Of a DNA stretch of 64,000 nucleotides, positions 10,444 through 59,300 are shown piece after piece; positions within the stretch are counted from its first letter, which is position 1, and each line of letters opens with the position of its first letter. The DNA is from Cyanidioschyzon merolae (Eukaryota), in the NCBI GenBank assembly GCA_000091205.1, contig AP006487.2. The stretch is one strand, 5' to 3'. Under the pieces are notes generated by a model that was not told where the DNA came from, made no database searches, and was given only the letters and a program-made list of their open reading frames with translations. The position numbers and the translations under genes were made by a program.

Positions 10444-10530
10444 CTTCGTCAGTTGGAGACGATTCGCCTAGGGCGGGTTTCTCTCCACCATTGTACACCG
10501 CTGGCGTCGTTTGACTCTAGAACGGCGTTT
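10444..10530 (+). repeat. Solo copy of the ~85-nt 3'-terminal block of the Fanzor-like element (candidate transposon right end / omega-RNA-like region)
   Basis: About 80% identical, same orientation, to 13835-13920. It includes the shared core 'ggcgtcgtttgact(c)tagaacggcgtttg'. No upstream nuclease ORF is recognisable here. Confidence 0.5.
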
Positions 10531-12656
10531 GTTGTTGGCGGTGTGGGCTCGATGTACGGGTTAGGCTCTTGAAAATAATCTTATAGAGTAGACTAGAGTA
10601 CGTTAGGCGCTTTTGTCGGGTTCCTCGATCGCGCCAGGCGAGATGCGTCGGTCAAACGCCGTGCTACGTATGGACGCTCTATATGTGATATGCCTCTACC
10701 AAGATCGCCGTATCCGGAGGACGAGGCAGGCACCATAAGCTAGACAACGACGGCAGCATGCAAATGGCTTGAACGCTCATCAGTACGAGGCCGTGACGCC
10801 CGGCAGAAGCAAAATTCGGCTCAGTCCCCTATTCCAGCGTCCGTTCAGTATGCATAACAAGCACCCGGATAAAACGTATATCCGTGTTCAGGAATCCTAC
10901 CGCGCCTTTTTTTCCGATCAATAAAACTAACAGAAATCCTATCGAGTAGAGTGCTGGATACCTCATCCGCACGAGCGCAGGATACTACGGTGGCTACGCG
11001 TATGCTGGAATCATCGCGGAGTTTCGTGCCGGGCTCCTGCATCTCTATGTATGCCACTGCGGTGCTGCGATGGGCAGTAGCTTCGGCACCAGCGACAGAG
11101 TCTATAGCAAGAAATTATTCTACGTGAGTTTTCGATCTAGGACACTTGATTTCCGCTGCAGCGCGATGCGAACACGCATGTCCCAAGGCGGGGCGTCGGA
11201 CACGTGTCCTTCATCGATCGGTGGGGCGTCTCGCGCGGTGCGTGCATCGCGCCGGTGAGCGCAACTGGGAGATCGGGCAGGCATGAAACACGATGTGCAT
11301 GCCGTTGTGGAAGGGAAACGTGATCTCGATCAGAAGCGTGTTGTTCTGCTGTAAATATTTTTATTGCGTTGAGTTCATAGCAGAGTACGGCTTTTCAGTT
11401 TATTTCTGTTTCAGCCCTAAAACGAGTCTAGTCAAGCGTCTTGTCGCAGTAAATAACTGAAGGGTTCAAAGAGTGTTTTTTCTCAAAAAAACAAAAAAAG
11501 GAAAGCTATGAAAAAGCAAGTCGACGATCCAGGGGGGCCCGGAGTCGCCAGCTGCCAAAAAAACAAAAAAGAATACCGAACCCAGAAGGAAAGGTAGAGA
11601 AAAAGGAAGCAAAAGGTGGAGGCCCCACGACGAAGGCGCCAAAAAGACAACTGTACAACGAGATGGTGGTGAAAGCCTGTCTTCTTAAACACTCCATGGA
11701 TCCGTACAGGGAAAAGTTGCGAGACGCTATCAAAAAAGTGCTGCGTCATACTCCAAAAGTATTGCCAAGGCGTCGTCAGGACTGATGCATTTGGCGGGGA
11801 AGATGTATCGAGATGTGACGCACATGGAAATAGTCAAGATTTTGGACGAGTTTTTCGACAAGACTTTTATTCGACACCTGATGCTTGGTAAAGAGGAAGC
11901 GCGGAGTGAAAATGGGCGGATGCACGTCCTCCACGAAAACTTCGCCAAAATCCGCTTCGAGGGTACTCGATACAAGGGCGACGCGGATATTTACATATAC
12001 GGGGCGATGAAGTACCTCACGAATCTGCAGAACCATTTGACAACAAACCTCGAACGTTTCATGATACGCGCCGTGGTTGCACTCTACCCGGGCATCTCTT
12101 GCAATAGGAAAGGGGCGATGATCAACGGCATCACGAATGATCGCAAGCATGAACATGAGATCGAGTTCGTCGACGTGAAGGCGTCAAACAAGAGCACGAA
12201 TGAAGGTTCTGTAATCCGTGCGGTTCTATATGAGCACCGTGCGGTACTGGGTCTGGCGAATCCAAAAGACGTGGTATCAGACTTGAAAAGGATGAAGTAA
12301 GATACAATCGCCTCGTCCTGCGGTATTTCATGTTTCTGGACCGAGAGCTCGAACGCGAAGCGGAGATGAAGCAGAGTGAAAAGACATATGAAGAGTGGGA
12401 GAGACGGAAGGCTTCCCTAATGGGTAAGCGCTTCAACGTAGTTCGAATGCGCAACATCAAGTCACATTTCGTGACTATCGACTCCAGAGTCCTTTACGGC
12501 ATCATGAAGGAGATCCGTCCGGAGTTCAATGTTAGCAGGGAGGAATTTTCCGGTGAAAACCGAGAGACGTGCTGAAAGAGTATCTTCGATTTCAAACGTC
12601 TCAAAGTGAGCGAACAAAAGGTATTCACTGGGTTGATCTAAACCGATGGAGTAGCC

Positions 12657-13529
12657 TTGTGTATACACTATCGGCGATTGAAGAAAGATCGGCCAGTCCC
12701 TCCCGCGGCTGCGCCCGTGACGAGGGATGAAGAAAAGGAGGCGGCTCGTCCTGCGACACAGGAGGTGGAGGAGAATGACCTCGTCGTTGGCGTGACGAAG
12801 GATGAAGATGAGAAGGAGGCGGATCTTGCGACGCAGGAGGTGGAGGAGACTGACCTCGTCGTTGGCGTGACGAAGGATGAAGATGAGAAGGAGGCGGATC
12901 TTGCGACACAGAAAGTGCAGGATAACGGCTTTGTCGTTGGCGCGGACCCTGGGAATACGAATATCATAACCATCGCTGCTCCCAAGCGCGCGAGAGATGG
13001 TGCTGATGGTAACTTACTCCAGAAAGACATGCGTTTTTTGAGGTTCTCACGAGCGAGATACTATCGAGAACCGGGAATGATGAATGCGAGGAAGAAAATT
13101 GGTACGTGGAATGTAAGAATGAAGGATCACCTGGAAGCTTTAAGCGAGGTGACTAGCCGAGGAGCGGACTTTGGAGCTTTTCGGAAATTCATGGAAATTC
13201 GTGTTGCCCAATGGGATGCACTGTGGGAGGAGTATACGAAGCCCCGGTGCGCTCGTCTGCGATTGAGTCTGTATTGTAGGAAGCAACGGGCGTTCGCGAA
13301 TTTTTTTAATCAGTTGAGCGCCTTGAAGGAGGATGATGGTCAGAGGCTCGTAATAGCGTATGCAGCAGGGCGCTGGGCGTCGAAGAGAGGGACTACACCA
13401 GCACCAACGACGAGGGTGTACAAGGAGTGTGCACGGCGTTTTGATACAATACGGATAGACGAGTTCCGAACATCGTATACACATCATGAACTGGATTGTG
13501 CACTCCAGAGAGTGGAGATGGAAAAGTAA
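12657..13529 (+). CDS. Fanzor/TnpB-like nuclease core fragment (RuvC-I/RuvC-II region); probably non-functional as a stand-alone ORF
   Basis: 290-aa ORF (track start is TTG). Contains 'DPGNTN' RuvC-I and '[18 protein letters not shown]'. Internal 60-bp tandem duplication encodes '[24 protein letters not shown]' twice. Confidence 0.55.
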
Positions 13530-13580
13530 CAGACAAGCCTTGAGGATATAGCAAAGTACGGACCGCTGACCGAAGAGCAA

Positions 13581-13859
13581 ATGGAAAGGAGGGCAAAAGT
13601 TCGTGGACTCCTTCCATTAGTACGTACAACCAATGATGGCAAGAAACGCATGGAATTCGTGAACCGTGACTTTCATGCCGCTATCAATATAAGGAAATAT
13701 GCGGTGCTGGAGAAGAGACCTCCAGAGCTGCCAAAAGTGAATTTTTTTGTACAACCTTCCAAAATTGAATTATTTGAGAAAATATTGGAAGCGGTAGTGG
13801 GTGGCCGGTCCAAAAACACGGGGTGGCGTCTGCACGTCAGTCGGAGACATCAGGTCTAA
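13581..13859 (+). CDS. Fanzor/TnpB-like C-terminal fragment (RuvC-III motif)
   Basis: 'MEFVNRDFHAAINIRKYAVLEKRPPELPKVNFF...', in frame with 12657-13529 but separated from it by TAA. The homologous C-terminus recurs at 30660-30742 (minus strand) and 57700-57929. Confidence 0.55.
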   Translation: MERRAKVRGLLPLVRTTNDGKKRMEFVNRDFHAAINIRKYAVLEKRPPELPKVNFFVQPSKIELFEKILEAVVGGRSKNTGWRLHVSRRHQV

Positions 13860-13973
13860 GGCGCCGGTTGGCGCGTCTACTGTACACAGTCGGCGTCGTT
13901 TGACTTAGAACGGCGTTTGGCCGCGTTTCACTTTACCGCAAAACTTCGGTACTCTGAAAAGCGATTTCGTGCA

Positions 13974-14273
13974 ATGTCCTCCGAGACCAGTGATAAGAAA
14001 CCGGTAGTGTCTGAGGGTAAAACTTCCGGAGGTGACCAAATCAACCTCAGAGTGCGCGATGCCGACGGCAACGAGGTCCAGTTCCGGATCAAGAAACACA
14101 CGCCCCTGCGAAAGCTCATGGATGCGTACTGCACACGTAAGGGAGTAGACTTGCACAGTTATCGTTTCTTGTTCGACGGGAATAGAATAAATGAGGACGA
14201 TACCCCGGAAAAACTCGGTATGGAAGATATGGACTCGATCGACGCAATGTTGTTCCAGCAGGGAGGCTGGTGA
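13974..14273 (+). CDS. SUMO: SUMO (Smt3-type ubiquitin-like modifier)
   Basis: 99-aa product from ATG 13974: 'MSSETSDKKPVVSEGKTSGGDQINLRVRDADGNEVQFRIKKHTPLRKLMDAYCTRKGVDLHSYRFLFDGNRINEDDTPEKLGMEDMDSIDAMLFQQGGW'. Canonical SUMO core with C-terminal GG and a single residue after it. Confidence 0.85.
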   Translation: MSSETSDKKPVVSEGKTSGGDQINLRVRDADGNEVQFRIKKHTPLRKLMDAYCTRKGVDLHSYRFLFDGNRINEDDTPEKLGMEDMDSIDAMLFQQGGW

Positions 14274-23083: not shown

Positions 23084-24055
23084 TGATTTTGGAGCGGCAG
23101 CAGAGAAGCCGTGGCGCATTCTCCAACGGGCGCTGTCTTCACTAGAATAGCCCCGAGCGAGCAAAGGTAGAGGATTGCTGGGGGACTTGAAGAAAAAGCA
23201 CAAGTGCCCCCAACTAGCCGCTCATTGCTCTTGCTTTACTTCGAGAGGGCCCGCAAGCCATGATTATGCGAATAATAGTTCCTGGAATACCTGTTCGCAA
23301 GAAGGCTTTGTTTGGAATGGGTAAGGAAGGTAGCCGTGGACCGGCAAGGAGAATATAGTTCGGCCACAGGTTGTACCCAAGGACAGTGCCGGAGAGCGCG
23401 GCCTCTCCAGTGACATCACGGATGCTCAGCGACACTCATGATAGAGCTCTGGAGCTGCATTGCTCAGCCTGACCCGAGCAGATTCGATGATGCACAATGC
23501 TCTTGGTTTTCGCGCAACCTCCCGCTCGCTCGCCTTTCAAGAGCATGTTCGTCGCTCGTTTCCTCACCGAGGGGAGAGGTACGAAATGTGTTCTAATTCG
23601 GAGAGCGCATTCCGCAGGCAATTGTGTATGCCTCAGACCCATATCCAACAAGACGGGTGACCGCATTTTCCAATCTACCACTCTGATACGATGCCAGCTC
23701 TGCGGCGATTTGGCCGCGTGCTACGGCAAAGGCGCTCCCTCGTTACCACACCGGTGTCAGTCTAGAAAGGAAAACTGATCTGCTCGCTTCGGTCCTTGGC
23801 TCTCGATTTTTTCCAAACTTGTTTAGATGTGCAACATGCTTACTCAGGGTACTGCAATAAGAGCTTGCGGATTCATCCATAGTTTTTGCATTCGTGGTCA
23901 TGTTTTCGGGAGCGCTCATTCGATGCTTTGCTGCTGGAAATCCTAAAGTAACAGGAACCAACATAATTCGCGACGCCTCGAATCAGGGTTTGTAAAATAA
24001 CCGATATCATTATGCAACTCATATGAACAAGCCTCCACTCTTCTCCATTCTTTAG

Positions 24056-24650
24056 GTGTATCCTGGCGAGATAACTCATTCTTTGAGGTTTCGATCTTTC
24101 TTTTCCAACGCAACTCATGGACGTAGCAATAGGCACCGTTCGATCGACAAAAAAAGTACATTAGACGATGACGCTTGCGACCTCTTCACAAGCTCGTGCC
24201 GAAAGTTCTCTGAAATTGTTACGTCAAATAATCAATTCCATTCGAAAATAGAAGCGTGCTCCCTTCGTGGCCATCGACGAGAATCTGTTCCACAACAGCA
24301 TGATACCTGTCAGGGGATATGCGCCCAAAAGCTACGGCAACCTCTGTTTCCTCGGAATGGGCCCTGGACTCGCACTTGATTCATCGCAGCGATAGCATCC
24401 AGTGGAGCTTGCGAGGCCGCTTTGCATGAACGCGCGCACAAAGATTGAAGCCTCTCGACATAGACTCCAACAAGAATTTCTTCCGATACTTGTATCATCA
24501 TGGACAACACCGTCCAACACAAATCTGGATCTTTTTTTGACAACAGCAACGAACACGGGATGGATCATCTTATTCACTCCAACTTATATGCCATGGTTCA
24601 ACCCGACTGAGAACGTGTTCGGGTTCAAGAAAGGAAGCAGGTGGTGAGCT
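24056..24650 (+). mobile_element. Relic of a Tc1/mariner- or IS630-like DDE transposase
   Basis: ORF 24402-24647 ends '...GWIILFTPTYMPWFNPTENVFGFKKG', matching the C-terminal catalytic-E block (LPPYSPDLNPIENVW-type). The upstream piece 24056-24379 contains 'LDDDACDLFTS'. Frames are broken, and the block sits in an AT-richer island. Confidence 0.35.
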
Positions 24651-25587
24651 ATCGAATGGAAATGCGTGCGCTTGCGTGTGCATCGGACAACGCACTAGCC
24701 GAGACTTTCACCCGAAAGAATCCTGTGATTTCAGGTTACGGCACCGGGTACAGAAACGGAAAAGGGCATCGAGCGGAACCTAATATTCAAGTTGCTCCAA
24801 CGCGTCGTGCAGCGGAGGCAAGTCTGCATACGCAAACTGTCCGAGCACAAATCGACAACGAGACTCGATCATGTGTCGGGTGAAGCAGGCTCTGAACCGA
24901 CGCCCTCTGTGGTATGGCAAAGCTGTTCTGCCTTCGTGCTGCATCAGCACCAGTGGTGTACGTGCCATGGCGGACGCTCGCGATATGCACTCGGAGCAAT
25001 ATAGAGCGTAAACAATATGCGGTATCCCCGAAGTAAAGGATGGTTAGTGGTACTTGGAAGTAGATGGAACGATGGATGCTTCATCGTGCGCTGAGAACAA
25101 GCGCACTGTTGGGGATCGCTGGTCTGCGTGAACATTCCGTCAAACAAAAAGAAGCAAAATCGAGCGCGCTCGCACGAGTTTTGTGAATGCGCAAGTCAAC
25201 GCTATCCGGACCCCAGCGATACGTACCGGAAGTTACATGGGGTGACGTCTTTGCGAGCTCAGTGCTGTGGAGCTGGAACCGCAGCTTTAAGTATCTACAG
25301 GGTTGTGCCCAAAGGCACCAATGTCGGAATACTTTCAGCGTGTCATGAACCACCGTTTCCAGGTTTGGATTCAGAGCTACCGCTGCGATGCCGAATCTTC
25401 ATCTCGATGCATCGCAGCAGAGTTTTCCCGTTCGGTAAACTACGACATATGAGGTGTTTTCGCATGACCTGCCCAGTGACATTGCGATCGGTTTGTACGA
25501 AGGTTTGCGGCGGCGGCGCCCTGTCGAACACCAAGAGGCATTATTTGCAAAGGCTAATATCGGGCAGGTACCGGTGGACCCTATCTA

Positions 25588-26706: not shown

Positions 26707-27644
26707 GGTTCGCAGCAAAATAGCCGTTCAGTTCCACTCTGAACAAATACACGTTCTTGCTTTGTCAGCGCCAGCAGCGATGTGCACAGTGAAGATGTTT
26801 TAGCGTAATAGACATCTGGCTGCTTCGCAAGGCCTACCTTCCCGCACACATGATCGTCGATGCATGCGCATCGCGCGACTGTCATCGACACCAGAAGAGA
26901 GAATGACGACTAATAGACAATTCTGTACAAGATTGCTTTCCCGCTCTAGGGTGAGCGGTGGTACGTCGAAAAGTTTCCCATGTTTTCTATCGGATCCTTA
27001 TAGTGACAAGGTTTCGCGAGCAGGACAAAGCTGCCGGTCTTTCGCTCCGTGCCCCCCCGCTGGCGGGTGCTAGAGTGAGACCTCAGCTGCTTGTCCGTAA
27101 CAAAGCACATTCTGGGACTAGGAGCAGGCTGCTGCGTCTGGGCGTCGGTCTGGTTGTGGTGGACTCCCAGTGTAACGCTTCGCGCTGCCGCAGGTGGCAC
27201 GTCTGTCCGCAAAGCCTACAGACTACCAGAATAGTGACGAATCCCGATCCCGTTTGGGATCAGCCTCAGCTCGAGCCGACGCTTTCAGTTGTATGGCAAA
27301 GCCGTTCTGTCTCCGTTCTGCATCCGCCCGGCCGTATGGGCGCTATGGCGGGTGCAGTAAGGCAGGCGCTCGGCGCACGATAGAACGTTCGGAACGACCA
27401 TCTCATCCGAGAGGATGTAATGGAGCTTACAGGTAGAGAGCGGCATAATGGACGCTTTCCCGAAAGCGATTACCTATCGCGCAAGCTGATAGCCGTGGCC
27501 AAAGTAAACGTATTTTCAAAACAAATGAGTGGGACCGTCTATACGCCTCCAGCGCTTGTCCGTAGCGACAGAAGCGTGCCACCACGCTACCCAGGGCAGC
27601 GCCCGGAAAGCATGTGGTGGAAATATGGGAACACGTGACCACTG

Positions 27645-28209: not shown

Positions 28210-30228
28210 TCATCGAAACTGAATATAAAAGGCTAGTATTTCTGCCACAAGAACCACGGATAACACGTCGAGTGCCGCCGATGTTAAGCGCGATGGCGCA
28301 GCGCTCGAAAACGTCTCTTGTGCAGCTGAGAACTCGCCTTGCGGGCTAAAGAGCGGCTCTTGACTAGCCGCCTCTCCAGCGAGGAGGGTATCTCTCGAGG
28401 CTACCCGCTTCATAGACGGCGCCGTATGCTCGGGGTCCACCGAAAAAGCCTCGTCTGAGTTTTCCGTCCCTGAAAATGACTCGATCTCAAGCTCGACTGT
28501 CTGCTGCCTAGCAGCCGGATCGGAGCTGCTCGGCTCGTCAGCCACGTAGCGTGACGCTCCTACAACCTGTTTCGAAGACGCTTCACCGATTTGGTTCCCT
28601 GCTGTGGTTCGTACGTGCGAGCCTGACGCACCTGCCTCTTGGAAGAGCAGCCCTAGCTGCTGCTCCGATGGCGGTTCGGTGAACAGACTCACTGTGACTA
28701 GAAGCAAACTGCTGAAAACCCAGGAGAAAATTGCGAAATACAGAAAGTTACTCTGAAAGAAGATTTTGCCAAGAGCGCCGAGGGGTGCCTCTCGGTGCGC
28801 CAAACGCAGCGCGACCTCGACAACGAAGCGCACCAGCCCGAGTGCGCCACCAACAAGCAGCGTGCAGAGCGCACCAGTCGCAGTTGCCCGTCGCCAGGCA
28901 ATACCAGCCACGAATACAACAGCGATCGGTGGAGCGATGTAGCTGATCACGGACTGGATGTAGAAGTAGAGCTCCTCGCCCATGCCTTCCACGATCGGAA
29001 TCCAGGCGAGACTGAAGGCACACAATACGATATTCGCGATTCTACCCAGCAATACAAGCGTCTTGTCCGAGAGCCGACTTAAGCCGCAGCATTCGATGAC
29101 AAAGTCATACACAACTACGGTTGAAGTGCTGTTAAAGGTTGACGCAAGCGACGACATGAGTGCTGCCAGCATAGCACTGACCATCAAACCAAGCAGGCCG
29201 TGGGGTAAAAGTCGTGCCACTGCCGTCGGATAGGCTTGATTTGGGTTCGCAGCTACTTCCGGAAATAACAGGAATGCACACAAACCAGGAATCACCATCA
29301 TAAAGGGTACCAACGTCTTCAAGAATCCGCACAAGAGACTTCCGCCACGTGCGTGCGCTTCCGATTTCGCGGAGAGGACGCGTTGCACCACAACTTGGTC
29401 CGTGCACCAGTAGAAAACTTCCAAGGCAGGCAGGCCAAAGATGATTCCTGGCCAGGGGTATTCGACCCAGGGAGTCGTCGACGAGGGCCATTGCAAGAGA
29501 TCCAACATTTGTCGCCGATTCTGCGCTGCGAGCAGCTCAGAAAGGCCGGCCAGGCTCCCAACAGCCTGGAGACTTCTGACTGCCAGCGCAAGCCCGCCGG
29601 CGAGTAAAACGAACGCTTGCAGAACTTCAGTCCATATCACTGCCCGCAGACCGCCCAAGCTCGTGTAGAGTGTCGTCAATACTAGGATCATGATCAGAGA
29701 AAACCATACAGGCCAACCGAGCAGCACCCGCAGAATGATCGCCCCAGAGTACAACGTTGCACTGACTTTGGTCAAAATAGCCATCATGATCGTTGCTAGG
29801 GCATGGTACCGCCGAGCGCCCGCTGCGTATCGCAGTTCAAGAAACTTGGGAACCGTGTGCAGGCTGTTGCGGAGGTAGAATGGCGCAAAGACCCTTCCGA
29901 GCACAACGCCCACGAAGATAGACGCCATCCACTCAAAAGATGCCACCGCAAGACCGGATGTCGCCCCTGCAGCTGCTAAAGCAATAAAGTGCTCGCTTCC
30001 TATGTTAGACATAAATAGGGAAGCACCTACTGCGAAAAAAGTCGTTGAACGGCCTGCAAGGAAGAACATTTCAGAGGCTGGCTTACTCTGAGTACCTGAC
30101 CCAGCGCGAGAACTTTTCCGAGTCGAAAGCCAGATTGCCAGAACCAGTGCACTAAAATAGACAATAACCAGCACCCAGTCGAGCGTGTTCAACGCAACCG
30201 CGGTGTTCGCGGGTGCTGTGGACGCCAT
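28210..30228 (-). CDS. Sodium:solute symporter family (SSS/SLC5-like) transporter
   Basis: 672-aa ORF with ATG at 30226-30228 and ~13 hydrophobic segments. 'FFLAGRSTTFFAVGASLFMSNIGSEHFIALAAAGATSGLAVASFEW' is an SSF signature region. Long hydrophilic C-terminal tail. Confidence 0.85.
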   Translation of the reverse strand: MASTAPANTAVALNTLDWVLVIVYFSALVLAIWLSTRKSSRAGSGTQSKPASEMFFLAGRSTTFFAVGASLFMSNIGSEHFIALAAAGATSGLAVASFEWMASIFVGVVLGRVFAPFYLRNSLHTVPKFLELRYAAGARRYHALATIMMAILTKVSATLYSGAIILRVLLGWPVWFSLIMILVLTTLYTSLGGLRAVIWTEVLQAFVLLAGGLALAVRSLQAVGSLAGLSELLAAQNRRQMLDLLQWPSSTTPWVEYPWPGIIFGLPALEVFYWCTDQVVVQRVLSAKSEAHARGGSLLCGFLKTLVPFMMVIPGLCAFLLFPEVAANPNQAYPTAVARLLPHGLLGLMVSAMLAALMSSLASTFNSTSTVVVYDFVIECCGLSRLSDKTLVLLGRIANIVLCAFSLAWIPIVEGMGEELYFYIQSVISYIAPPIAVVFVAGIAWRRATATGALCTLLVGGALGLVRFVVEVALRLAHREAPLGALGKIFFQSNFLYFAIFSWVFSSLLLVTVSLFTEPPSEQQLGLLFQEAGASGSHVRTTAGNQIGEASSKQVVGASRYVADEPSSSDPAARQQTVELEIESFSGTENSDEAFSVDPEHTAPSMKRVASRDTLLAGEAASQEPLFSPQGEFSAAQETFSSAAPSRLTSAALDVLSVVLVAEILAFYIQFR

Positions 30229-30549
30229 GCGTGCGAGTCGTCGACAGCTGCTGGCTGTCTCTTGCTGTGAATCTTACAAATTTAGTCTTTCCAGAAACAC
30301 GCTTTTGACCTCCCAATACGTAAAAACGGGACCAGGGCGAGCATGCACGGTTCGTATTCTGACAAGTCCGTAGAGCGCGCCCAACTCTAGCGAGTAACCC
30401 TGCAGTAGAGCTGTCAGAGAGAATGGCGGGCCCGCAACACCCTCCGGGGCACTCACTGCACTGCTGCGCAGTGTCGCGATCATGGTCAAGAATGGATTGC
30501 GATCCATGATGGTTAATGAATACCCGATCGTAGACGCTTTCCAGCCTTT

Positions 30550-33000
30550 TTGACCGACTGACTGCTATCAGCTTCAGTTTATCCAGGTATGCTTCGATCA
30601 TAAGAGGATGTTTCTCAAACATGGCTCGCGTCAGGTCCTCGGGTCTCTTCCTCAGCGCCACACATGGTTTGATGTTGACGGAGGCGTTGAAGTCTCGGTT
30701 AACGAACTCCTTGTGTGCATTGCTGCTGCTTGAACTGATCATTGCAAGGAGCGCTATACATCATGCTCTCTTCGCAACTACACTCTCGTCATCGTCCCGT
30801 CGCCCAAACACTTTTTCTCGTCCATATCCTCTCTCCTTCGTCGTCTTTTGCTCGTCTTCGCTCGATGATCTATGAGAAGAAGATTTTTCCATTTGTGTGT
30901 CGAACATGGTGATGGAGGCCCTCCAGGATCCCCGACTTCTATGTCCATACCTTTTCCTTCGATTTTTTATCTTTGAAAATGAACGCTCTTGTTTATGCGC
31001 ATAGTTGAGGACCTTCCCGAAGAAAGAGAGACTTGCGCAAGCTCGACGACGTGTGCCCCGGTGTGTCACCGTGTGCTGAACGCTTCAGCGATTCGCCCAG
31101 TAGAGCGATCATCACACGTTCCACATTAGAAAGGAGTGCTTTGATAAGGCCGCGCCACGGTGCGTACGGAGGAATGAAAAGCTGCTCTCACCCCCGCAGA
31201 ATTGGCACAGCTCGAACGCAACAGGAATGGTGAAATGCTACGTTTCCAATCGAAGGACATTGCCAGTCGTCACGGAAAAAGTCTTGAATGATTCGATAAA
31301 AAGAGTGCTGTTGTGTGAGCCTTCTCTATTTGTGAAACTGAGGAACCGAATGGAATCCAATGCAGCTGGAACAGATGATATCCTCGTTCTTTTCGAGCTC
31401 TATCGTACATACAACGCGCTCCTTCTCCTCGAATAACCGTGTACGTTCTGGTCGTTTTTCTCCGAGGAAAGTCTCATCTACTTGCAAAACAAATCAAAGT
31501 CGCTGTGCTTCATGCCATTCGCGAGGCTCCAGGAGTGCTGCAGTTTCGTTTTCGGTGGAAGATGGCCATAGTTGAACTGAGACTCTTTTTGGCGAGTGTA
31601 TCCCGGTGTTTTCAGGACCACACGAACAAGCTGTTGAGAAACAGAGAAGCCCATAGCGGCTACGATCTTCGCTTTTTGCTTTCCGTGAAAGTTGACCAAC
31701 GGGTTGTTCTCTACCATTGGCTGCAAGCTGTCTCTACGAGTACCGGTTTGTGGCGCGAAGTGCATCTACTTTCTTTCGATGCTGCTGAACCATCTGAGTA
31801 CTGTGGTATGACTGAGCTGAAGGAGCAATGCAGTCCTCTTTGCACTGTTCAGTAAAAAATATGTATACTTCAGGCAGTTCGTCTACCATCTTTCCAGCGC
31901 ATTGTATCGTGATTGCGACCGCCTAATATACACCGCAGCCGGGTGGATAAAGATTGGGTTAAAAGACTCTGGCTAAGGAGGGCCGACGTACCCGGTACCA
32001 ACCGGCGTAGGTCGTATGCCGGATGGTTGAACAAGTCACAGATGCTGAGCGATACAAGAGTACGCGGAAAATAAGATTCCAAGGGTTTTGTGAAATGTGG
32101 AAGCATCTCTATGACGAGAACTGACGCCATTTGCAACATTACTAGCATTCTTCGCGCGTTCGAATACGCTGGTTCTAGTCACGGGTACTGCACCAACACG
32201 AAAACCCGGTACGGTCCCGGGACGGAGCACTCCCAAATGGCACCGCTGTCGCTCGAGCGCGCCTCTGGCCATCGAGAGGCGAGGTCTCCATGACAAGCAC
32301 CTAAGGCCAGACCAGATTAAAATGGGATGCTGAACAGCTCGAGTTGCCTGTGCCTTTCGATTTCTTTTACAGACCCTTTTAGTAGTAGAGCCTCGAAAAT
32401 TCGAGGTATAGGAGTGAGGGTTTACGGACTCACAGCTAGTTTTCGGATTCTTGTTCGTCTAGTCTGAGCGGGTACTTTGGCGATTTAGAGTCGGAAATTG
32501 CTACAGAGTCAAGATGACTCACAATAGACTTGGACTAGTGCCAGAAAAGTAACCAATGACATCATCCAATTCACAAGTACAGACCACCACTGTTCTCTTC
32601 ATAATAGATGTAGTGTGCTCATATTATATATTCTTTGTGTTCTCGATCTTTCTCTTACAGAGCAACTGGCTAGCGTACGAATGAGGTCGGCTGGATTGAT
32701 GACGAAAAAACCTCGACGTCGTTTCTTGCTGAATTCTTCAAATGCTCGCGCCAAAAGTTTATGGGATGCGTCACTCCAAATCCTCGACTCTGTTCGGGAG
32801 AGAAATCCTCCTCGTTTCGTCGCCATTGACGAAGCTGAATTCGACGGCAACATGAGAAAACTCACGGGAGGTGCTCACAGAGACTTCGTTCTCTTCTATC
32901 TGCATGTAAAAGGGTCTTGGACTCGGATTTTAGTCATAGCAGTGATCGCTCCTGGAAGGGAATACCTCATCGCCCGGCAAGAAGGGACCGTAGCCGAATA
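30550..33000 (-). mobile_element. Fanzor/TnpB-like element copy 2 (degenerate, minus strand)
   Basis: 30660-30742 (minus) encodes 'HKEFVNRDFNASVNIKPCVALRKRPEDL...', homologous to copy 1 'MEFVNRDFHAAINIRKYAVLEKRPPEL...'. The upstream piece 30761-31069 has '...FDTQMEKSSSHRSSSEDEQKTTKER', comparable to copy 1 'QRVEMEK..LTEEQMERRAKVR'. The 3'-terminal nucleotides 30540-30600 are homologous to 13790-13850. Upper boundary (~33000) is approximate, and frames are broken throughout. Confidence 0.45.
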
Positions 33001-33299
33001 GAAAAACAAGTTGTCGACTTGTTCTCCAGGCTAGATCCTGCTTCCAGTACTAGCTTGGTCAAGAACAACCTGGCATTCTACAAATACTTTATGGACTGGG
33101 GGAGCGTGCGCTTGTGCACGCAAAGCACGGAGTACTTGCCAACGGCACCGCCCAGACGGAGGCCATCGTCTTTGGGTATGGGGTGCGACGCAGAAACGGA
33201 GGACACCATCAAATGCAGACATCTGCATCCGGCAGGGGTATCTGTCGAGCGATAAAGCAAGTGCCGGCGGGCAACGCTCGGAGGAGGAGATATTGAGGA

Positions 33300-33700
33300 C
33301 AAACTGTAACACCTGACCACAGGTAAGTGTCACCACGACAAAGGACACACCAGGGCTGTATGTGTAGAAGATGAAAATGGCAAGCGAAGCGAATATCGTA
33401 TCTTCCGCCTGTTCATTCAGAGCGTCAGTAACAGCGAAAAGCAATGACCTTGAGAATGACACTGGTGTCAACATGCCTCGAGTTTTGACAACCAAACGGG
33501 AGCGAAAATGCAAACTGGTGTATTTGAAGCCTCAGATGATAGAGAGGAACGCGCAGCAGTCCCCGATAATGCCAGCAAAGGCTGGGCTCGATGAATGTGG
33601 TCAGATATCCAAACTTTCGCATATGCGCCCCTGTCAGGGGACGTTCCATTTTATGCTGAACTGAGTGTGAGTACCAGCGCGTGGCAGCGTACCACGCAGC
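33300..33700 (-). repeat. Second copy of the hydrophobic-peptide paralogous segment (see 27645-27960)
   Basis: Minus ORF 33031-33513 contains 'LLFAVTDALNEQAEDTIFASLAIFIFYTY'. Nucleotide similarity to copy 1 continues into 33450-33700 in a different frame. Confidence 0.4.
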
Positions 33701-33882: not shown

Positions 33883-34746
33883 ATGTTTGCACAGCTGGTG
33901 ATGGGACCGGCCGGTTCGGGCAAGTCCACGTACTGCCATGCTCTGCAGCAACACGGTGAGATCGTCGGCCAACTGGTGCACGTAGTGAACCTTGACCCTG
34001 CTGCCGAGCGTTTCGAGTACAAGCCTGTTGCGGATATTCGGGATCTTATCACTGTCACAGACGTTGCGGAAGAACTTAGTCTAGGCCCGAACGGATCCCT
34101 AGTCTACTGCATGGAGTACTTGCTTGAAGATCAAGACTGGTTAGAGCAAGTTCTCTCTGAGACAGCAGAGGACGACTACCTGGTTTTTGATATGCCGGGT
34201 CAGATAGAACTGTATACGCATTTCGAGTGCGTTCGGCAGTTCGTTTACGTCCTCCAGAGCCAGTTCAGCATGCGTGTATGCAGCATATTCCTTCTTGATG
34301 CACAGTTTCTCGCCGATGCATCAAAATTTTTCGCGGGCTCGCTTACCGCCATGGCAGCAATGCTGCATCTCGGGTTGCCACACCTTAACGTCCTCAGCAA
34401 AGCGGACCTGCTGCGACACAGGATCGAGCATCGCGATAACACGCTGGAGCCTTTGTCCTCGGACGCTGAGGCACCCAACTCTGACGAGGCACTTGATGAG
34501 TTCCTGGAGCGCTTCCTCAATCCTGATATACAGTCGCTTGTTTCGGAGCTCAGTGAACAGATGGATACACGGTACCGAGCTCTCAATGAACGGATAGGTG
34601 CCTTGCTAGAAGACTACGCAATCGTACAATTCGTTCCTTACTCTGCCACTGATGAAGACAGCATCGGTGAATTGCTGCTGCGTGCGAATCTGCTGCTCCA
34701 ATACGATGATGATCGTGACGTTCGAATTCATCCCGAACTCGACTAG
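33883..34746 (+). CDS. GPN3: GPN-loop GTPase 3
   Basis: 'MFAQLVMGPAGSGKSTYCHALQQHGEIVGQLVHVVNLDPAAERFEYKPVADIRDLITVTDVAEELSLGPNGSLVYCMEYLLEDQDWLEQ...DMPGQIELYTHF' contains P-loop, GPN motif and DxPGQ. It is colinear over 287 aa with GPN3. Confidence 0.85.
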   Translation: MFAQLVMGPAGSGKSTYCHALQQHGEIVGQLVHVVNLDPAAERFEYKPVADIRDLITVTDVAEELSLGPNGSLVYCMEYLLEDQDWLEQVLSETAEDDYLVFDMPGQIELYTHFECVRQFVYVLQSQFSMRVCSIFLLDAQFLADASKFFAGSLTAMAAMLHLGLPHLNVLSKADLLRHRIEHRDNTLEPLSSDAEAPNSDEALDEFLERFLNPDIQSLVSELSEQMDTRYRALNERIGALLEDYAIVQFVPYSATDEDSIGELLLRANLLLQYDDDRDVRIHPELD

Positions 34747-42059: not shown

Positions 42060-42269
42060 TGCGGAGAAGCTTGTCTACTGGGTCTTGCTATAGCGGAACG
42101 CACTCATTCAGCGCTTTCCGTCCCTTGGTATCCGAAGCCGACCCAAGTGTCATCGTGTACGCGATGTTTCGTAAACCTCGCCGCGGTAGCCCGCGGATCA
42201 TGTACCGTTGCCTGGCCTCAGGATGGAGCGAGTTCGAAACGAAAACAGTTGCCTGCAAAAATATTAAAG

Positions 42270-42872
42270 AAAAAATGTGCCTGGTGGTGTCAGAATCCAA
42301 CAATTTTGGAACTAGAAAATAGTTTTCTGAAAAGATGTTGACAGAAAAAGTGCCTGGTGGTGTCAGAATCCAACAATTTTGAAACTAGAAAACAGTTGTC
42401 TGAAAAGATGTTGACAGAAAAAGTGCCTGGTGGTGTCAGAATCCAACAATTTTGGAACTAGAAAATAGTTTTCTGAAAAGATGTTGACAGAAAAAGTGCC
42501 TGGTGGTGTCAGAATCCAACAATTTTGAAACTAGAAAACAGTTGTCTGAAAAGATGTTGACAGCAAAAGTGCCTGGTGGTGTCAGAATCCAACAATTTTG
42601 AAACTAGAAAATAGTTTTCTGAAAAGATGTTGACAGAAAAAGTGCCTGGTGGTGTCAGAATCCAACAATTTTGAAACTAGAAAACAGTTGTCTGAAAAGA
42701 TGTTGACAGAAAAAGTGCCTGGTGGTGTCAGAATCCAACAATTTTGAAACTAGAAAACAGTTGTCTGAAAAGATGTTGACAGAAAAAGTGCCAGTAAGTG
42801 TCAGAATCCAACAATTTTGGAACTAGAAAATAGTTTTCTGAAAAGATGTTGACAGCAAAAGTGCCTGGTGGT
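42270..42872. repeat. Minisatellite: ~61-bp unit x ~10 in the SRalpha / DHRS12 intergenic region
   Basis: Unit '(g)aaaagatgttgacag(a/c)aaaagtgcctggtggtgtcagaatccaacaattttg(g/a)aactagaaaa(t/c)agtt(t/g)tct' repeats head-to-tail. Each unit holds small hairpins ('agaaaa-tag-ttttct'; near-palindrome 'ccaacaattttgg'). Confidence 0.75.
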
Positions 42873-48635: not shown

Positions 48636-49520
48636 TGTTGAGGGCGTTCTCGGCAACCGCACGCTTTCCCTCTCTCTCCGTCTCTCTCGCGCTCTCTCTC
48701 GCTCGCTCTGATCTCCGGCTTCAATGGCGCAGATGGCTCTATTCCATATCGAGTCGTTGTCAGCGGTCGAAGGACGTTGAGGGCAGCTCGTAACTGCCGA
48801 TCTCGCCGCACCCAGCTGTTGTCGACGCATTCAAACTGCAGGCGGACGCTGCGGACCAGGAAGCTCATTCGTAAACAGCCTCGACACGCCTTTTGCACCA
48901 TAGACGCTTGGCTACGGTCACGTGTTCCCATGCGTTCACCGCACACCCGCATCCAACTCCTCGTCTGGCTCCTGCATTGCCTCCGCCTCCTCCGCCTTCC
49001 AGCGTCATCCAGTGGTGCCTGAACGCATGCTTCATCGCTCGATACATGACGCTGACCAGTTACCGACGTCTACCACGAATGTCATGCCTCATTATCGCGC
49101 TCGATGGCATACCCGACGAATCACGAGCATCTTCGGGGTGATCCGCTCCGCTCGTTTCTTGTGAGATGCAAGCGCAAGCACGCGCTGTTGTATTCGATAG
49201 AGGATTTGCAAAGCGCGATCTTGTCAATGGTAAAACAAGTACAACAAGCGAAATCCAGGCTGGAAAAGGCGTCGAAAAACTTCCAATCAATCTATGCTCC
49301 ATTCGTGCAAAGCGGTACCGCGCTCCCCAATGAAGTTGATCCCTGCATCGCCTCCGGTCCGGGTATAAGACCATTTTCCATGCTAACAGAGGAGATGGGA
49401 GCCTCTGGCACCATATCCGCTCAAAAGCGTGCTGCTGCTGCTGCTGCTGCTGTAGAATGTTGTCTCGTCCATGCTCATAGAGAAAGACGATTTTCTGTAT
49501 CGAAAGGAATCGATTATTTG
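48636..49520 (+). repeat. Mosaic dispersed repeat family, copy 1 (modules A + A')
   Basis: 48636-49275 is ~99% identical to 54693-55330 (module A, with a CT-rich tract). 49276-49520 (A') is related to 58540-58800. An ORF (49104-49538) spans A/A' and is partly conserved at the amino-acid level in copy 3 ('PFSMLTEEMGASGT…AVEC' vs 'PFSMLNEAMGAAGT…AVEW'). Confidence 0.7.
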
Positions 49521-53487: not shown

Positions 53488-54692
53488 TGCGCGTTCGTCA
53501 CATATTCGAACGATTGTAAACCAGTTTTGCCTCAGGCATCCGGGAGCAGGATCTCAGCACAGCGTTCTGGACGATGCTGGTCGCGTTTTGCGAAAAGCGT
53601 ATCCGCTGCAGCGAACGACTGCGAACGGCTCATGGATGCGTACGGTCATGCACGGGGGGCGCCCACAACGACACCCGCTCAGTGGTTTCGGGAAGGTGTT
53701 CTTGTTTTTTTCGTCTCCGAGTTTTGCGTTCGCACCGGGGCTGTCGACGCCACTGGGAGCATCCACGGCAGACTCGGCGCACGATGGAACATGAGAAACG
53801 CCCAGTATCTCCGAAGGGACCAGGGTTGATGGAATTCGGCAGTATGCCATGGAATGATGGACGCTTTCTCGGTCGCTTATAGCAAGCGTGCTACCCTCTT
53901 TCGTATATAGATTCGGTGGATCGAAAAGGCAGCTGCTCCTTGCACGCGTTCTACGATGACCGCGACGCTGGCAGGGCAGGTAACGCTCCCCGTATGCGTT
54001 CTAGCGGGTTGGCGTCGAGTGCACAGCGGCCCAGCGCTCGCCATCGTTATCCGAACGATATAGACGGGGTTCCAGACCGTACCCAGCGCTGAAGCAGATA
54101 CATGTGCGCCCCAGATATCGCCGCATCTCTGCAGCAACACCGACAAGCACCGCGTTGGCATGAGCGCTGGCCACCATCGGTAGTTGAGCACGCCCGGCAA
54201 TGCCGTGCACGCTGCTCCGGGCCGGAGCAAACCACGTGTTGTGTTTCGGACGCAAGACTCCTGGTCGATTGCTGCAAGTACGCTGATTCGATGCGTGTTT
54301 GCATGAGTTCAGTCGAGCGATATGGACAGGGGCGAGCTGCTGTGCCTTGTGCTGAATGCGGAGCATGCCCATCGCCTGGAACGGTGAATGTCGTTGCCGG
54401 TATGGATACCAGCGAGCTACCGTAACTGAGGATACCGGGAGCTCAGATCCATATAAGCCAAATCAGGTACATAGTGGTGTTGGTGGATGATATCAGCGGT
54501 AGCAGCGTCTTCTTAGAAAACAGGTATCTGCTGAAACAACAAGCGTTCTCTTGAACACGGCCGCACCGCCTGACGAGCGCTTGTCTCATTGCCTCAATAC
54601 ACGTGTTCGCGTAAAATGCAGCATGATGACTGACAATGGCGTATATGCTCAAAATTCGGCAGCTTTTCGAACGATTATGAGTACCATCATTG

Positions 54693-55830
54693 GTGGGCGT
54701 TATCGGCAACCGCACGCTTTCCCTCTCTCTCCGTCTCTCTCGCGCGCTCTCTCTCTCGCTCGCTCTGATCTCCGGCTTCAATGGCGCAGATGGCTCTATT
54801 CCATATCGAGTCGTTGTCAGCGGTCGAAGGACGTTGAGGGCAGCTCGTAACTGCCGATTTCGCCGCACCCAGCTGTTGTCGACGCATTCAAACTGCAGGC
54901 GGACGCTGCGGACCAGGAAGCTCATTCGTAAACAGCCTCGACACGCCTTTTGCACCGTAGACGCTTGGCTACGGTCACGTGTTCCCATGCGTTCACCGCA
55001 CACCCGCATCCAACTCCTCGTCTGGCTCCTGCGTTGCCTCCGCCTCCTCCGCCTTCCAGCGTCATCCAGTGGTGCCTGAACGCATGCTTCATCGCTCGAT
55101 ACATGACGCTGACCAGTTACCGACGTCTACCACGAATGTCATGCTTCATTATCGCGCTCGATGGCATACCCGACGAATCACGAGCATCTTCGGGGTGATC
55201 CGCTCCGCTCGTTTCTTGTGAGATGCAAGCGCAAGCACGCGCTGTTGTATTCGATAGAGGATTTGCAAAGCGCGATCTTGTCAATGGTAAAACAAGTACA
55301 ACAAGCGAAATCCAGGCTGGAAAAGGCGTAGAAAAACGTTGACTGCAATCGATGATTCGCATTGCCGAGTTCAGCGCTATCTCAGCATTGCTATGTGATC
55401 AAGTCATCCAGGGAAGATCTCGGGTGTTTGCTCTCGTCCATCCAGCGGCGCGAATCGCTGTGCCCACAAATCCCCTTGAACCTGATTGGTAGAAAACCTG
55501 ATGCATGCAAAGTCTGCGCATACTCTATCTGTTTGACACGGAAAAGCATGCAGATTGCTACCCAGGACCTGGACCATGAAACCGGTTGGTTTACGAATCC
55601 TCGTTCGAGGGCGTCGCCATGCATCGGTCTTGCGGTGCCGCAACGATTTCCAGTGGCACAGCGCCCAGAGCGCCACGCCCAGGAGACAAGCGAGAATCCC
55701 AAGAATTCGGACGAATCTGTAAGACCCCATTGCTACACTTCGGTTATCGAAGCTGTACACCTGAACAGCATTCCGATAAAAATCTCAAGCCAGGACTAGA
55801 GCCAGCAGTCCAGTGTCCCATGTTCATCGG
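54693..55830 (+). repeat. Mosaic dispersed repeat family, copy 2 (modules A + B)
   Basis: 54693-55330 matches copy 1 module A with ~6 differences. 55335-55830 is ~97% identical to 58803-59300 (module B). A' is absent. A c>a change creates a TAG in the frame that is open in copy 1. Confidence 0.7.
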
Positions 55831-56952: not shown

Positions 56953-57599
56953 GTCGTACAAGTCCGGGCACAGCGCGCGTTCGGTCGAGGGCGTCGTCAA
57001 GGCCGGCTTTCGCGGAAAGTAACCTGCGAGGTGTCCCGCCCGTCCCAGACGTTTAACGCACAAGGCGTCTGGAACGCTCAACGGAATACCAGTAAAGTCG
57101 AGTGCGACTCGGCGGAGACCCACGAGACTCGGTTCCAACCCTGGTAGCCGCGGAAGCGTAGTGCAGCGTGCGTTCCGGCGCGCGAAGGCCAGGTTATCGG
57201 CGCACCGTGTCCACTGAGTGTACAGGACAGCACCGCACCGTTTCATGAACGATCGATCGATTGATCGGCAGCAGCGGCAGCAGCAGCAGCGGCAGCAGCG
57301 GCAGCAGCGGCACGTCCCTGGAAGTCGTCGATTGCTGCGGCGGATTGCGCGGGCGCGATGCATTCGCGGTGGCGTTTTTCTCCAGTTGATGGTGTTCCAG
57401 CTGCAGATGCGTGCCACTGCATGTGCTTTTTTGCGATCTATAGCAGACGCGGTCGAATTGGATTCACTTGAAGGATTTAAAACATCTAGGAGAATGGTAT
57501 GGGCGTAAAAGTGGAGGATTTTGGAGCGTCGCCATCGCTCGGTTCTGCAAAGAAACGGGAACGATCCTCCTCTGACTGACGATCGTGCGACGAAGACGA

Positions 57600-57930
57600 A
57601 GAAGAACAGGGCAGAGTAGGCGAGAAAGTGTGTTTGCCTAACGAGATCATCACGGAACTGTAGTGGCAGAGAGGACGCAAGATCGAGGAATCATCGCAGT
57701 GGTGCGTTCAGCTTGCTGCGGAGCACATAGAGAACTCGTGAAGCGAGACTTCAACGCCGCCGTCGATACCAGAAAAGGTGCGGTACCGCAGACGAGAGAC
57801 GCGAGCGATGTGACGCGGGCGAAGGTTGCGGGCCAGCCTCACAGCATCGGCGTGTACGGGGTTAAGCTGAAGCCGATAGCAGGCGGCTGGTCAAAACAAG
57901 CAGGGAGGCGTCTGAGCGTAGGAATGTAAA
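57600..57930 (+). mobile_element. Fanzor/TnpB-like relic 3 (C-terminal fragment only)
   Basis: ORF 57663-57929 has 'SACCGAHRELVKRDFNAAVDTRK' (Zn-finger remnant plus RuvC-III motif). The 3'-terminal nucleotides 'ggctggtcaaaacaagcagggaggcgtctgagcgt' are homologous to copy 1 'ggccggtccaaaaacacggggtggcgtctgcacgt'. Confidence 0.4.
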
Positions 57931-58059
57931 TATCATTCACGGTCGAGGGACATTTTTTGTTTTCCTGACCCTCTCCAGGATACAATGAAGCATGTTGCCT
58001 GACCAGGGCGTAAACGCTCAAGTTCGGGCTCTTTTTTAACGATCTTGAATACTTGCGTT

Positions 58060-59300
58060 CGCGGGCCTGTCTGTAACCGCTTCCTTTGCCTGTCTCTCGG
58101 ATTTCCGGCTTTCAATATGCGAGTCCTTTGTTTTCCTGTGGATCCGTTGTAATCAAAAGAAGGACGTTTATGGCAGTTTGAAGGCCCCGATTCTGAAGTT
58201 CCAGGCTGTTCTCGACACCGCTAATGCACAACTGGAGGTTGCGATCAACGCTTTCGTTGTGTTCTTGCGATCTTCTTTGGATAGAACTGCGGTGTGCTCG
58301 TCGCAGCGGTGAGAGTTGCCTGTCATCAGATGTTCGCATGCGCCCAACAAATTCCCTCGTCCGAGCGATTCCCCTCTGTCGTGGAAACGCTTGCTTCAGC
58401 GCTCGATGCATTGCCTCAACGGATACGGAAAGCGCGACTCGATGCTTTGCTGCGGTGAAGCCTCTGGGCGATGCCCGCGGCGAGTACCCTCGTTGCGGCA
58501 CGGCGCACGCGCACGCTGTTCCATAAGGCAGAGAATTTCGTGGAATGCACAATGTCGTCCATGATGAACCAAGTATCCGACGGGAAGTGAAGGCCTGGGT
58601 AGACTTGGAAAAATTTCGGTTCCTGTACGCTACCTCCATGCGAAGCAGTCGATATGATGAATCAGGTCAGAGTCCGATGCCCTTTTCCATGCTAAATGAA
58701 GCGATGGGAGCCGCTGGTACCGCATCAAAAGAGAGCTATGATGGTGATGGTGATGCTGTAGAATGGCGTCTTGTCGATGAACACATATAGGGGGAAAAAG
58801 GCTGGCCTTTCGGACGCAATCGATGATTCGCATTGCCGAGTTCAGCGCTATCTCAGCATTGCTATGTGATCAAGTCATCCAGGGAAGATCTCGGGTGTAT
58901 GCTCTCGTCCATCCAGCGGCGCGAATCGCTGTACCCACAAATCCTCTTCAACCTGATTGGTAGAAAACCTGATGCATGCAAAGTCTGCGCATACCCTGTC
59001 TGTTTGACACGGAAAAGCATGCAGATTGCTACCCAGGACCTGGACCATGAAACCGGTTGGTTTACGAAACCTCGTTCGAGGGCGTCGCCATGCATCGGTC
59101 TTGCGGTGCCGCAACGATTTCCAGTGGCACAGCGCCCAGAGCGCCACGCCCAGGAGACAAGCGAGAATCCCAAGAATTCGGACGAATCCGTAAGACCCCA
59201 TTGCTACACTTCGGTTATCGAAGCTGTACACCTGAACAGCATTCCGATAAAAATGTCAAGCCAGGACTAGAGCCAGCAGTCCAGTGTCCCGTGTTCATTC
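58060..59300 (+). repeat. Mosaic dispersed repeat family, copy 3 (diverged A + A' + near-identical B)
   Basis: 58060-58800 is ~75% similar to module A/A' of copy 1. 58803-59300 is ~97% identical to 55335-55830. It starts ~130 bp downstream of Fanzor relic 3. Confidence 0.6.

Follow-up and report, generated by a model that had tools for sequence, protein, structure and literature searches.

A probable relic of a composite DNA transposon, with a transposase remnant and an internally deleted Fanzor1 gene, on chromosome 5 of Cyanidioschyzon merolae

We analysed 64,000 nucleotides of chromosome 5 of Cyanidioschyzon merolae 10D (GenBank assembly GCA_000091205.1, contig AP006487.2), a stretch that we call the window, and within it a minus-strand repeat, here named copy 2, that lies in the intergenic gap between a sodium:solute symporter gene and a GPN-loop GTPase gene. 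An original prediction had read positions 30550-33000 as a second, minus-strand Fanzor-like copy, the first being the plus-strand copy 1 of the same window. Copy 2 is indeed derived from a Fanzor element and has kept its RuvC-III end and its 3' nucleotides, but it spans ~30485-31968 and not the interval first proposed. We consider it probable that copy 2 represents the insertion of an old composite DNA transposon, now dead and decaying neutrally, which is derived from the Fanzor1 element CMe-1A and consists of a transposase relic joined to an internally deleted Fanzor gene. We observed this architecture directly, along with boundaries common to other loci, the identity of the transposase at the level of the family consensus, the absence of the Fanzor core and neutral evolution. 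Judged from its sequence, copy 2 is predicted to encode neither an active nuclease nor an active transposase.

Fanzor segments and boundaries of copy 2

To describe the parent element we relied on the published CMe-1A consensus (Bao & Jurka 2013, supplementary file 2). CMe-1A has been reported from C. merolae in ~150 copies with ~80% identity to the consensus, without terminal inverted repeats (TIRs), without a transposase and with its classification unknown (Bao & Jurka 2013, PMC3627910), and it makes up ~5% of a very compact genome of 16.5 Mb. Both peptides on which the original prediction rested exist, in the open reading frames (ORFs) 30152-30742 (minus) and 13581-13859 (plus), and the homology claimed for their C-terminal ends is confirmed by several comparisons. 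In tblastx, 13626-13814 of copy 1 matches 30736-30548 of copy 2 with 36.5% identity over 63 amino acids (E = 5e-9); a profile of 32 family proteins matches 30539-30778 (minus) through its positions 580-660 (E = 5.4e-15); and a broad Fanzor1 hidden Markov model (HMM) matches copy 2 at positions 561-602 (E = 8e-11). At the nucleotide level, CMe-1A 2859-3082 matches 30532-30751 at 68% (blastn), and the local alignment of CMe-1A 2809-3082 to 30800-30532 scores 153, compared with a maximum of 41 among shuffled sequences. The resemblance of the terminal nucleotides to the 3' end of copy 1, also part of the earlier reading, was recovered in a three-way alignment at ~30532-30600 and ~13790-13845. By protein profiles only the last ~80 Fanzor codons are recognisable in copy 2, whose RuvC triad is incomplete: RuvC-III is present, and nothing was found at profile positions below ~560. 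A protein homologue search with the copy 2 peptide gave no match at E <= 0.01.

The other end of the Fanzor gene is also represented. CMe-1A 869-937 matches 30990-30917 at 77% (blastn), the local alignment of CMe-1A 869-1109 to 30990-30729 scores 93 (shuffle maximum 36), and the peptide of ORF 30778-30948, 'MDIEVGDPGGPPSP...', parallels the CMe-1 N-terminus 'MEKEVEDPGGPVSPAAGKKRK' ('MEKEVEDPGGPVSP...'). Hence the piece at 30761-31069, which had been likened to the region before RuvC-III, corresponds instead to the CMe-1A 5' untranslated region (5'UTR) and the first ~60 Fanzor codons, in another reading frame. The two significant CMe-1A matches abut or overlap at 30730-30800. As for the interior of the parent, the alignment score of CMe-1A 1121-2800 with copy 2 equals the mean of shuffled sequences, and two protein HMMs, run at E <= 100 with filters off, detected no Fanzor-core homology in 30780-33000 and matched nothing in the window beyond copies 1, 2 and 3. 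The coordinates place the N-terminal and C-terminal Fanzor pieces in different frames, so that no fusion protein is encoded. The 3' part was the only one seen in the original prediction because that part carries the RDxNAxxNI motif.

Metagenome contigs, scanned with the copy 2 and copy 3 peptides (copy 3 being a third, shorter copy in the window), yielded 80 loci, which reduce to 40 distinct ones; most show the C-terminal Fanzor segment only and nothing upstream, yet comparison of the nucleotides revealed boundaries in common. By blastn, an identity of ~70% extends over ~1.4 kb, from -1237 to +190 relative to the RuvC-III anchor, between copy 2 and six other distinct loci (L066, L024, L021, L060, L031 and L014), which have the same composite architecture and with which it forms what we call the long class. 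Positions 7-1553 of a long-class DNA HMM cover 31971-30452 of the window, a match that is partly by construction, since copy 2 is among the seven copies from which the model was built. Identity in the long-class alignment falls sharply at both element ends, and the termini of copy 2 were placed by reading the alignments of this class and of the short class described below. Its 5' terminal segment was assigned through the class: positions 5-81 of the long-class model match CMe-1A 784-862 (E = 0.0026), copy 2's own segment being too diverged for significance by itself. The transposase segment falls between CMe-1A positions 862 and 869. Two simpler pictures were discarded. A bare 3' fragment of ~440 bp, as given by blastn and tblastx within the window alone, was dropped after the related loci gave 1.4 kb of homology, and 5'-truncated retrocopies were ruled out by the lack of poly(A), the retained Fanzor start and the common boundaries.

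Copy 2 therefore carries CMe-1A ~784-862, 869-1109 and 2809-3094 in the same order and orientation and is of similar age, at ~80% identity to the consensus, whereas it lacks CMe-1A 1-783 and ~1110-2808 and adds a transposase segment of ~900 nt. It is, by nucleotide homology, a derivative of CMe-1A and not a full member. On its 3' side, the homology to the element ends at ~30485-30530, and the symporter gene, on the same strand, has its ATG ~257 bp further downstream; the overlap with the start of that gene that had been supposed does not exist, and the ORF that continues to 30152 into the symporter gene is open by chance.

Long and short classes and the transposase relic

A DNA HMM of ~610 nt, built from 14 loci with copy 3 included, defines a second, short class. 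Copy 3 covers positions 3-610 of this model, to which it contributed, and matches long-class positions 1019-1540 (E = 5e-84); it is 66% identical to copy 2 over 447 nt, and the 32-protein family profile also matches it, at 57669-57926 (plus). Copy 2 in turn matches short-class positions 77-587 (30990-30487, E = 5e-117). The short-class model matches CMe-1A in two blocks, 793-1019 (model positions 2-247, E = 1e-38) and 2832-3091, and splits at its positions ~295-300 on full-length copies, including those at L005-L007. This two-block match indicates that the short class is an internal-deletion derivative of CMe-1A, in which a stretch running from the core 5' end through the 5'UTR and start codon to ~40-60 codons is followed directly by the last ~90 codons with the 3' end. 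Both copy 3 and the Fanzor part of copy 2 have the two ends of the parent with the interior gone, as in derivatives of the kind represented by MITEs (miniature inverted-repeat transposable elements). A census of the 40 distinct loci comprises ~10 long, ~17 short and ~10 full-length elements; the long architecture occurs in at least 9 loci besides copy 2, and the short one in at least 17 further distinct loci besides copy 3.

Internal-deletion, MITE-like derivatives of DNA transposons are well known, as are bacterial TnpB/omega-RNA remnants. Copy 3 resembles the former in that the two ends of its parent are joined, without coding capacity, at many dispersed loci, and differs in that neither TIRs nor clear target duplications were found in the short or the long class. 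In the papers that our search covered, Repbase lying outside it, we found no description of the composite of transposase and mini-Fanzor or of the ~600-bp class. TE-N2_CMe, a 635-bp relative equal to the 5' 635 bp of CMe-1A (Bao & Jurka 2013, PMC3627910), is not the same piece as our short class. A de novo survey of MITEs reported none from C. merolae (PMC3964958), probably because the copies are old, with ~66-70% pairwise identity. One long-class locus, represented by L012 3138-3534 and L027 2705-3381, shows a tandem amplification of up to four units of ~93 nt that span the Fanzor start codon region (long-class HMM 1097-1186), the number of units differing between the two metagenomes.

The segment that separates the long class from the short one is recognisable through its consensus. 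The majority consensus of seven copies restores the reading frames and shows segments resembling helix-turn-helix (HTH) domains, followed by 'VDETSFG', 'LLLDNVAFHHS' and 'PPYAPWFNRIE', with 34 residues between the second D (in 'LLLDN') and the E (in 'NRIE'), that is, a D-34-E spacing as read in the consensus. The stitched consensus of the seven copies matches Pfam DDE_3 (E = 7.3e-23, 81.5 bits, cut-off 28.6), gives weak matches to HTH_Tnp_Tc3_2, HTH_33 and HTH_Tnp_IS630, and is 24.5% identical over 257 amino acids to the transposase of the mariner element PUl-1 (E = 1.4e-12). Copy 2 itself has kept the first catalytic D ('QVDETFLG', ~31480) but neither the second D nor the E ('LRLET*', 'RPYQSTPF*'), and its own translation has no Pfam match. 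All seven long copies, copy 2 included, are broken by stops, frameshifts or both. The predicted identity as an IS630/Tc1-mariner transposase of the DD34E type thus applies at the level of the family consensus only. What had been taken for a heavily degraded Fanzor gene with many frame breaks over 2.4 kb is, from 30991 to 31890, this transposase relic and, from 32400 to 33300, a separate relic on the plus strand (Table 1).

Table 1. Position, strand and content of copy 2 and its parts and of other features of the window
Feature	Position	Strand	Description
Copy 2, whole	30485-31968	minus	Probable decayed long-class composite of ~1.5 kb: transposase relic and internally deleted CMe-1A Fanzor1 element
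Copy 2, 5' terminal segment	31891-31968	minus	Common to the short class and CMe-1A ~784-862; consensus AGTCTTTCA.CTCAAT..TGTTCCAC
Copy 2, transposase relic	30991-31890	minus	Putative IS630/Tc1-mariner DD34E (consensus level), with stops and frameshifts
Copy 2, N-terminal Fanzor piece	30801-30990	minus	CMe-1A 5'UTR, Fanzor ATG (30948) and ~57 N-terminal codons; ORF 30778-30948, 'MDIEVGDPGGPPSPCSTHKWKN...'
Copy 2, deletion junction	30730-30800	minus	CMe-1A ~1110-2808 gone (~1.7 kb, ~570 Fanzor codons, RuvC-I and RuvC-II included)
Copy 2, Fanzor1 C-terminal remnant	30532-30800	minus	~90 codons; RuvC-III NRDFNAS at 30680-30700; in-frame TGA at 30761-30763
Copy 2, 3' terminal non-coding segment	30485-30531	minus	Ends ...CCATTCTTGAC; diverged; terminus uncertain by ~20 nt
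Copy 1	11271-13895	plus	CMe-1A Fanzor1 element; family HMM positions 2-670
Copy 3	57380-57981	plus	Short class, ~600 bp: the ends of copy 2 and the Fanzor deletion, without the transposase segment
Repeat B	32400-33300	plus	Relic of a second IS630/Tc1-mariner family; opposite strand, separate from copy 2
Sodium:solute symporter gene	28210-30228	minus	ATG at 30228; reading frame uninterrupted
GPN-loop GTPase gene	33883-34746	plus	Reading frame uninterrupted
SUMO gene	near 13917-14273		Reading frame uninterrupted

Origin of the composite and retention of the 3' end

To account for the three size classes, we propose as the most likely and most economical origin an ancestor that would have carried a transposase and a full Fanzor gene in tandem, as does PUl-1 of Pythium ultimum. 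Loss of the transposase would have given CMe-1A, loss of most of the Fanzor gene the long class and loss of both the short class, and the three classes would have been mobilised through common ends; the 3' end would persist in every derivative because both ends have to be present in cis for transposition. Mariner elements that carry Fanzor1 have been described from Pythium ultimum (PUl-1) and Phaeocystis globosa virus (Bao & Jurka 2013, PMC3627910). The long class resembles PUl-1 in having a mariner-type DDE transposase upstream of Fanzor1, in the same orientation and within a single element. However, PUl-1 has an intact Fanzor, 24-bp TIRs and TA duplications (Bao & Jurka 2013, PMC3627910), whereas in the long class Fanzor is reduced to its first ~60 and last ~90 codons, TIRs were not detected and all copies seen have decayed.

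Several observations weigh against descent from such a tandem ancestor. A locus with both the transposase and a full Fanzor gene was met at none of the 40 distinct loci, and the transposase consensus was pieced together manually, over frameshifts, out of no more than seven decayed copies. In a test for TIRs, the 5' 60 nt of each class consensus, short and long, was set against its 3' 90 nt in reverse complement, and the scores of 15-16 were reached by 32 and 38 of 500 shuffles. TA directly precedes 'GTC' at 8 of 13 5' junctions, while at the 3' junctions TA appears only 2-7 nt past the last conserved base, a reading that was made by eye and is ambiguous. Because the TIRs are not significant and this reading of the TA duplication is unclear, the DD34E transposase is no more than a candidate for cut-and-paste movement. 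Moreover, upstream of the 5' end common to the short and long classes, the CMe-1A consensus and copy 1 continue for ~110-780 nt; this common end may be a recombination breakpoint and not a true terminus, and the transposase segment could have been captured later, or have come in as a nested insertion, and then have spread along with the element that hosts it.

That a mini-Fanzor element captured a piece of transposase at a later stage is a serious rival, if in our estimate an unlikely one. Under this explanation the transposase would not be the family's own: an unrelated IS630/Tc1-mariner element or fragment would have landed in the 5'UTR of a deleted mini-Fanzor, and the chimera would then have been copied by the mechanism of CMe-1A, possibly Fanzor-dependent homing or recombination. 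This would agree with the lack of the transposase segment in CMe-1A and in all full-length copies, with the TIRs not detected here and reported as lacking from the unclassified CMe-1A (Bao & Jurka 2013, PMC3627910), with the presence of a second mariner-type family (repeat B) that is scattered in the genome, often within 2 kb of these elements, and with the frequently chimeric nature of Fanzor elements (Bao & Jurka 2013, PMC3627910). Yet in the consensus the insert of ~930 nt has neither TIRs nor a TA duplication at its own junctions, the transposase precedes Fanzor in the same orientation as in PUl-1, and the junctions are identical in ~10 distinct loci; descent from a tandem ancestor is the explanation that we prefer. 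A full-length second Fanzor at 30550-33000, decayed through frameshifts until only the C-terminal motif is recognisable, is scarcely credible. Its C-terminal homology is genuine, and a long, lower-GC intergenic gap suits transposon debris, but upstream of 30778 both protein HMMs are empty and the CMe-1A core aligns no better than shuffled sequence, the stretch is occupied by a mariner-type transposase relic (through the family consensus) and by another relic on the opposite strand, and the N-terminal Fanzor codons directly adjoin the C-terminal ones, as they do in at least 17 short-class loci.

The original prediction also held that conservation concentrated at the 3' end of every copy was notable. 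In characterised Fanzor1 and TnpB systems the guide (omega) RNA lies at the 3' end of the gene or element, and Saito et al. are said to have found in 2023 that Fanzor1 systems encode it there. A 3' end that is kept because it functions, whether as a gene for a trans-acting guide RNA or as a promoter or 5' regulatory element of the symporter, would fit this position, and also that the deletion derivatives retain, besides the 3' end, the 5'UTR and start, where a promoter may lie; it would also fit the transcription of the 3.2-kb repeat family discussed below (Nozaki et al. 2007, PMC1955436) and the presence of copy 2 in every sampled strain. We nevertheless judge such a function very improbable. 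The proposed dN/dS comparison was computed by the Nei-Gojobori method, with values that are saturated (dS 0.65-1.8) and biased by the protein-guided alignment, so that we turned to counts by codon position. Copies 2 and 3 differ from each other evenly at first, second and third positions, both in the Fanzor tail (32/32/33) and upstream of it (24/28/26); between copy 1 and copy 3 (42/26/44) a sparing of second positions persists. Between strains, the Fanzor tail of copy 2 differs by 2.2-2.5%, compared with 0.7-1.2% for other intergenic sequence and 0.3% for the symporter coding sequence, and is the fastest-diverging segment. Third positions are not more conserved at the 3' end (12 full-length copies), and conservation is uniform along the short and long copies. 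An Rfam search gave no match and RNAalifold found no consensus structure in 40 aligned 3' ends, in tests for a guide RNA that work from sequence and are limited by the deadness of the copies. The flat codon positions, the fast divergence between strains and the lack of a detected RNA structure together indicate that the 3' end has not been retained by selection, and that copy 2 is evolving neutrally. Retention is instead structural, since copies 2 and 3 are deletion derivatives, which keep both ends of their parent, and is partly an effect of ascertainment, because RuvC-III is the most recognisable motif.

A bolder extension, which we think improbable, is that the DD34E transposase of the long class would be the missing mobiliser of CMe-1A, while the mini-elements, retaining the Fanzor promoter/5'UTR and the putative guide-RNA region at the 3' end, would be hitchhikers with a guide RNA only, borrowing Fanzor in trans for their retention or homing. 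If true, the mini-elements would be a eukaryotic counterpart of the omega-RNA-bearing, non-autonomous relics of the IS605 type.

Copy 1, neighbouring repeats and the CMe-1A family

Copy 1 corresponds to CMe-1A consensus positions 671-3145 at 82-85% identity. In this strain it is a pseudogene, interrupted by an in-frame TAA (13527-13529) and by a frameshift near 12290. The TAA is a Leu codon in the metagenome variant P0001 ('...VEMEKLQTSLED...', 91% identical), and the nonsense change appears to be strain-specific. Just before RuvC-I, an acidic linker is encoded by three tandem units of 75 nt (12716-12942, 78-86% identical), the number of which differs among family proteins, P0013 having more. 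Close relatives of copy 1 number more than 225 in metagenomes, and its family has 1,413 representatives in a library clustered at 50%; some of the metagenome ORFs, P0017 and P0028 among them, are open. The family consensus carries the whole RuvC triad, with the D of RuvC-I in GADPG, the E of RuvC-II in VDEFRTS and the D of RuvC-III in NRDFNAA, and the conserved motifs are GxDPG, VDEFRT and NRDxNAAxNI. The stretch that separates RuvC-II from RuvC-III reads 'YTHHELGC...MEKC' in the family, a pair of His and a pair of Cys, in contrast to the CxxC...CxxC of the C4 zinc finger motif of Bao & Jurka; this stretch is missing from copy 2.

A profile of 56 diverse full-length relatives matches the Fanzor1 structures PpFz1 (9cf0, E = 1.6e-19), SpuFz1 (8gkh, E = 8e-11) and GtFz1 (9cer, E = 3e-6), from the REC/WED region through RuvC-III. 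The copy 2 segment aligns to the '...GLL.C...NRD.NA..N...RP..F.R' end of these proteins and differs from them in lacking two of the three RuvC catalytic motifs. Sequence searches of the PDB with single proteins or with a narrow family alignment or profile gave no match, the broad alignment alone being successful. Pfam searches with the individual ORFs of copies 1 and 2 and with whole-frame translations of 30700-33700 were likewise negative, the TNB domain gave only a sub-threshold match in the Fanzor1 family, and an AlphaFold model from a shallow alignment was unusable (pLDDT 36.6).

The C. merolae genome was earlier found to contain 253 copies of a 3.2-kb interspersed repeat related to WSV486, a family that is transcribed, and eight transposase-related elements that were counted without placement (Nozaki et al. 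2007, PMC1955436); this repeat is very probably the CMe-1A family. In the window, the longest TE-N2_CMe copy, at 26932-27518 (minus), matches CMe-1A 4-596 at 75%, and fragments lie at 60104-60285, 24873-25081 and 53764-53871 (all minus). A lone copy of the final 84 nt of CMe-1A (3086-3169, 78.6%) is found at 10447-10527 (plus), ~750 nt upstream of copy 1; copies 2 and 3 either lack this terminal stretch or have it in a form that cannot be aligned. On one metagenome contig (L005) a reverse-transcriptase (RVT_1) gene at 742-2638 (minus) lies just upstream of a full-length CMe-1A copy, in keeping with an earlier report that C. merolae has non-LTR retroelements (Nozaki et al. 2007, PMC1955436).

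Repeat B, the plus-strand relic beyond copy 2, is ~62% identical to 23850-24860 (plus) and has copies at at least eight further loci (L012, L025, L033, L038, L050, L057, L080 and L087). A ten-copy consensus matches DDE_3 (E = 4.5e-7, 30.3 bits, cut-off 28.6). We rejected it as a part of copy 2, given its opposite strand, its membership of a separate family and the lack of nucleotide likeness to the long-class transposase; the repeat B family is the older. Eight other loci have repeat B at a distance of 0-2 kb from an element of the short or long class, the orientation varying, and this proximity may reflect transposon clustering or a real association. Elsewhere in the window, a tandem array with a period of ~73 nt (units 88-95% identical) occupies 42233-42872 in a low-GC (0.42) kilobase, and direct duplications (48642-49280 with 54695-55337, 98.4%; 55345-55827 with 58816-59298, 97.9%) flank the copy 3 region. 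Among the products of the symporter, GPN-loop GTPase and SUMO genes, two are identical to BAM79250 and BAM79251 of C. merolae 10D. The gap between the symporter and GPN-loop GTPase genes that holds copy 2 and repeat B is unusually long (3.65 kb) and lower in GC, and hot-spring metagenome contigs carry the same locus with ~99% identity.

The Fanzor1 family of C. merolae, its abundance and its transcription are already published, as is the link that Fanzor1 has with mariner elements elsewhere among organisms, and the locus itself is of very little consequence, a dead intergenic relic of a family described in 2013. It does carry a caution for motif scans, in that a lone RDxNAxxNI match marks a deletion derivative and a degraded gene equally well. 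The comparison also sets a 'core' element, CMe-1A ~784-3169, apart from the TE-N2_CMe part of the published consensus. The ends of CMe-1A are joined to a putative IS630/Tc1-mariner transposase at ~10 loci and enclose a Fanzor stub alone at ~17, and this arrangement offers a testable candidate for how the family may have moved.

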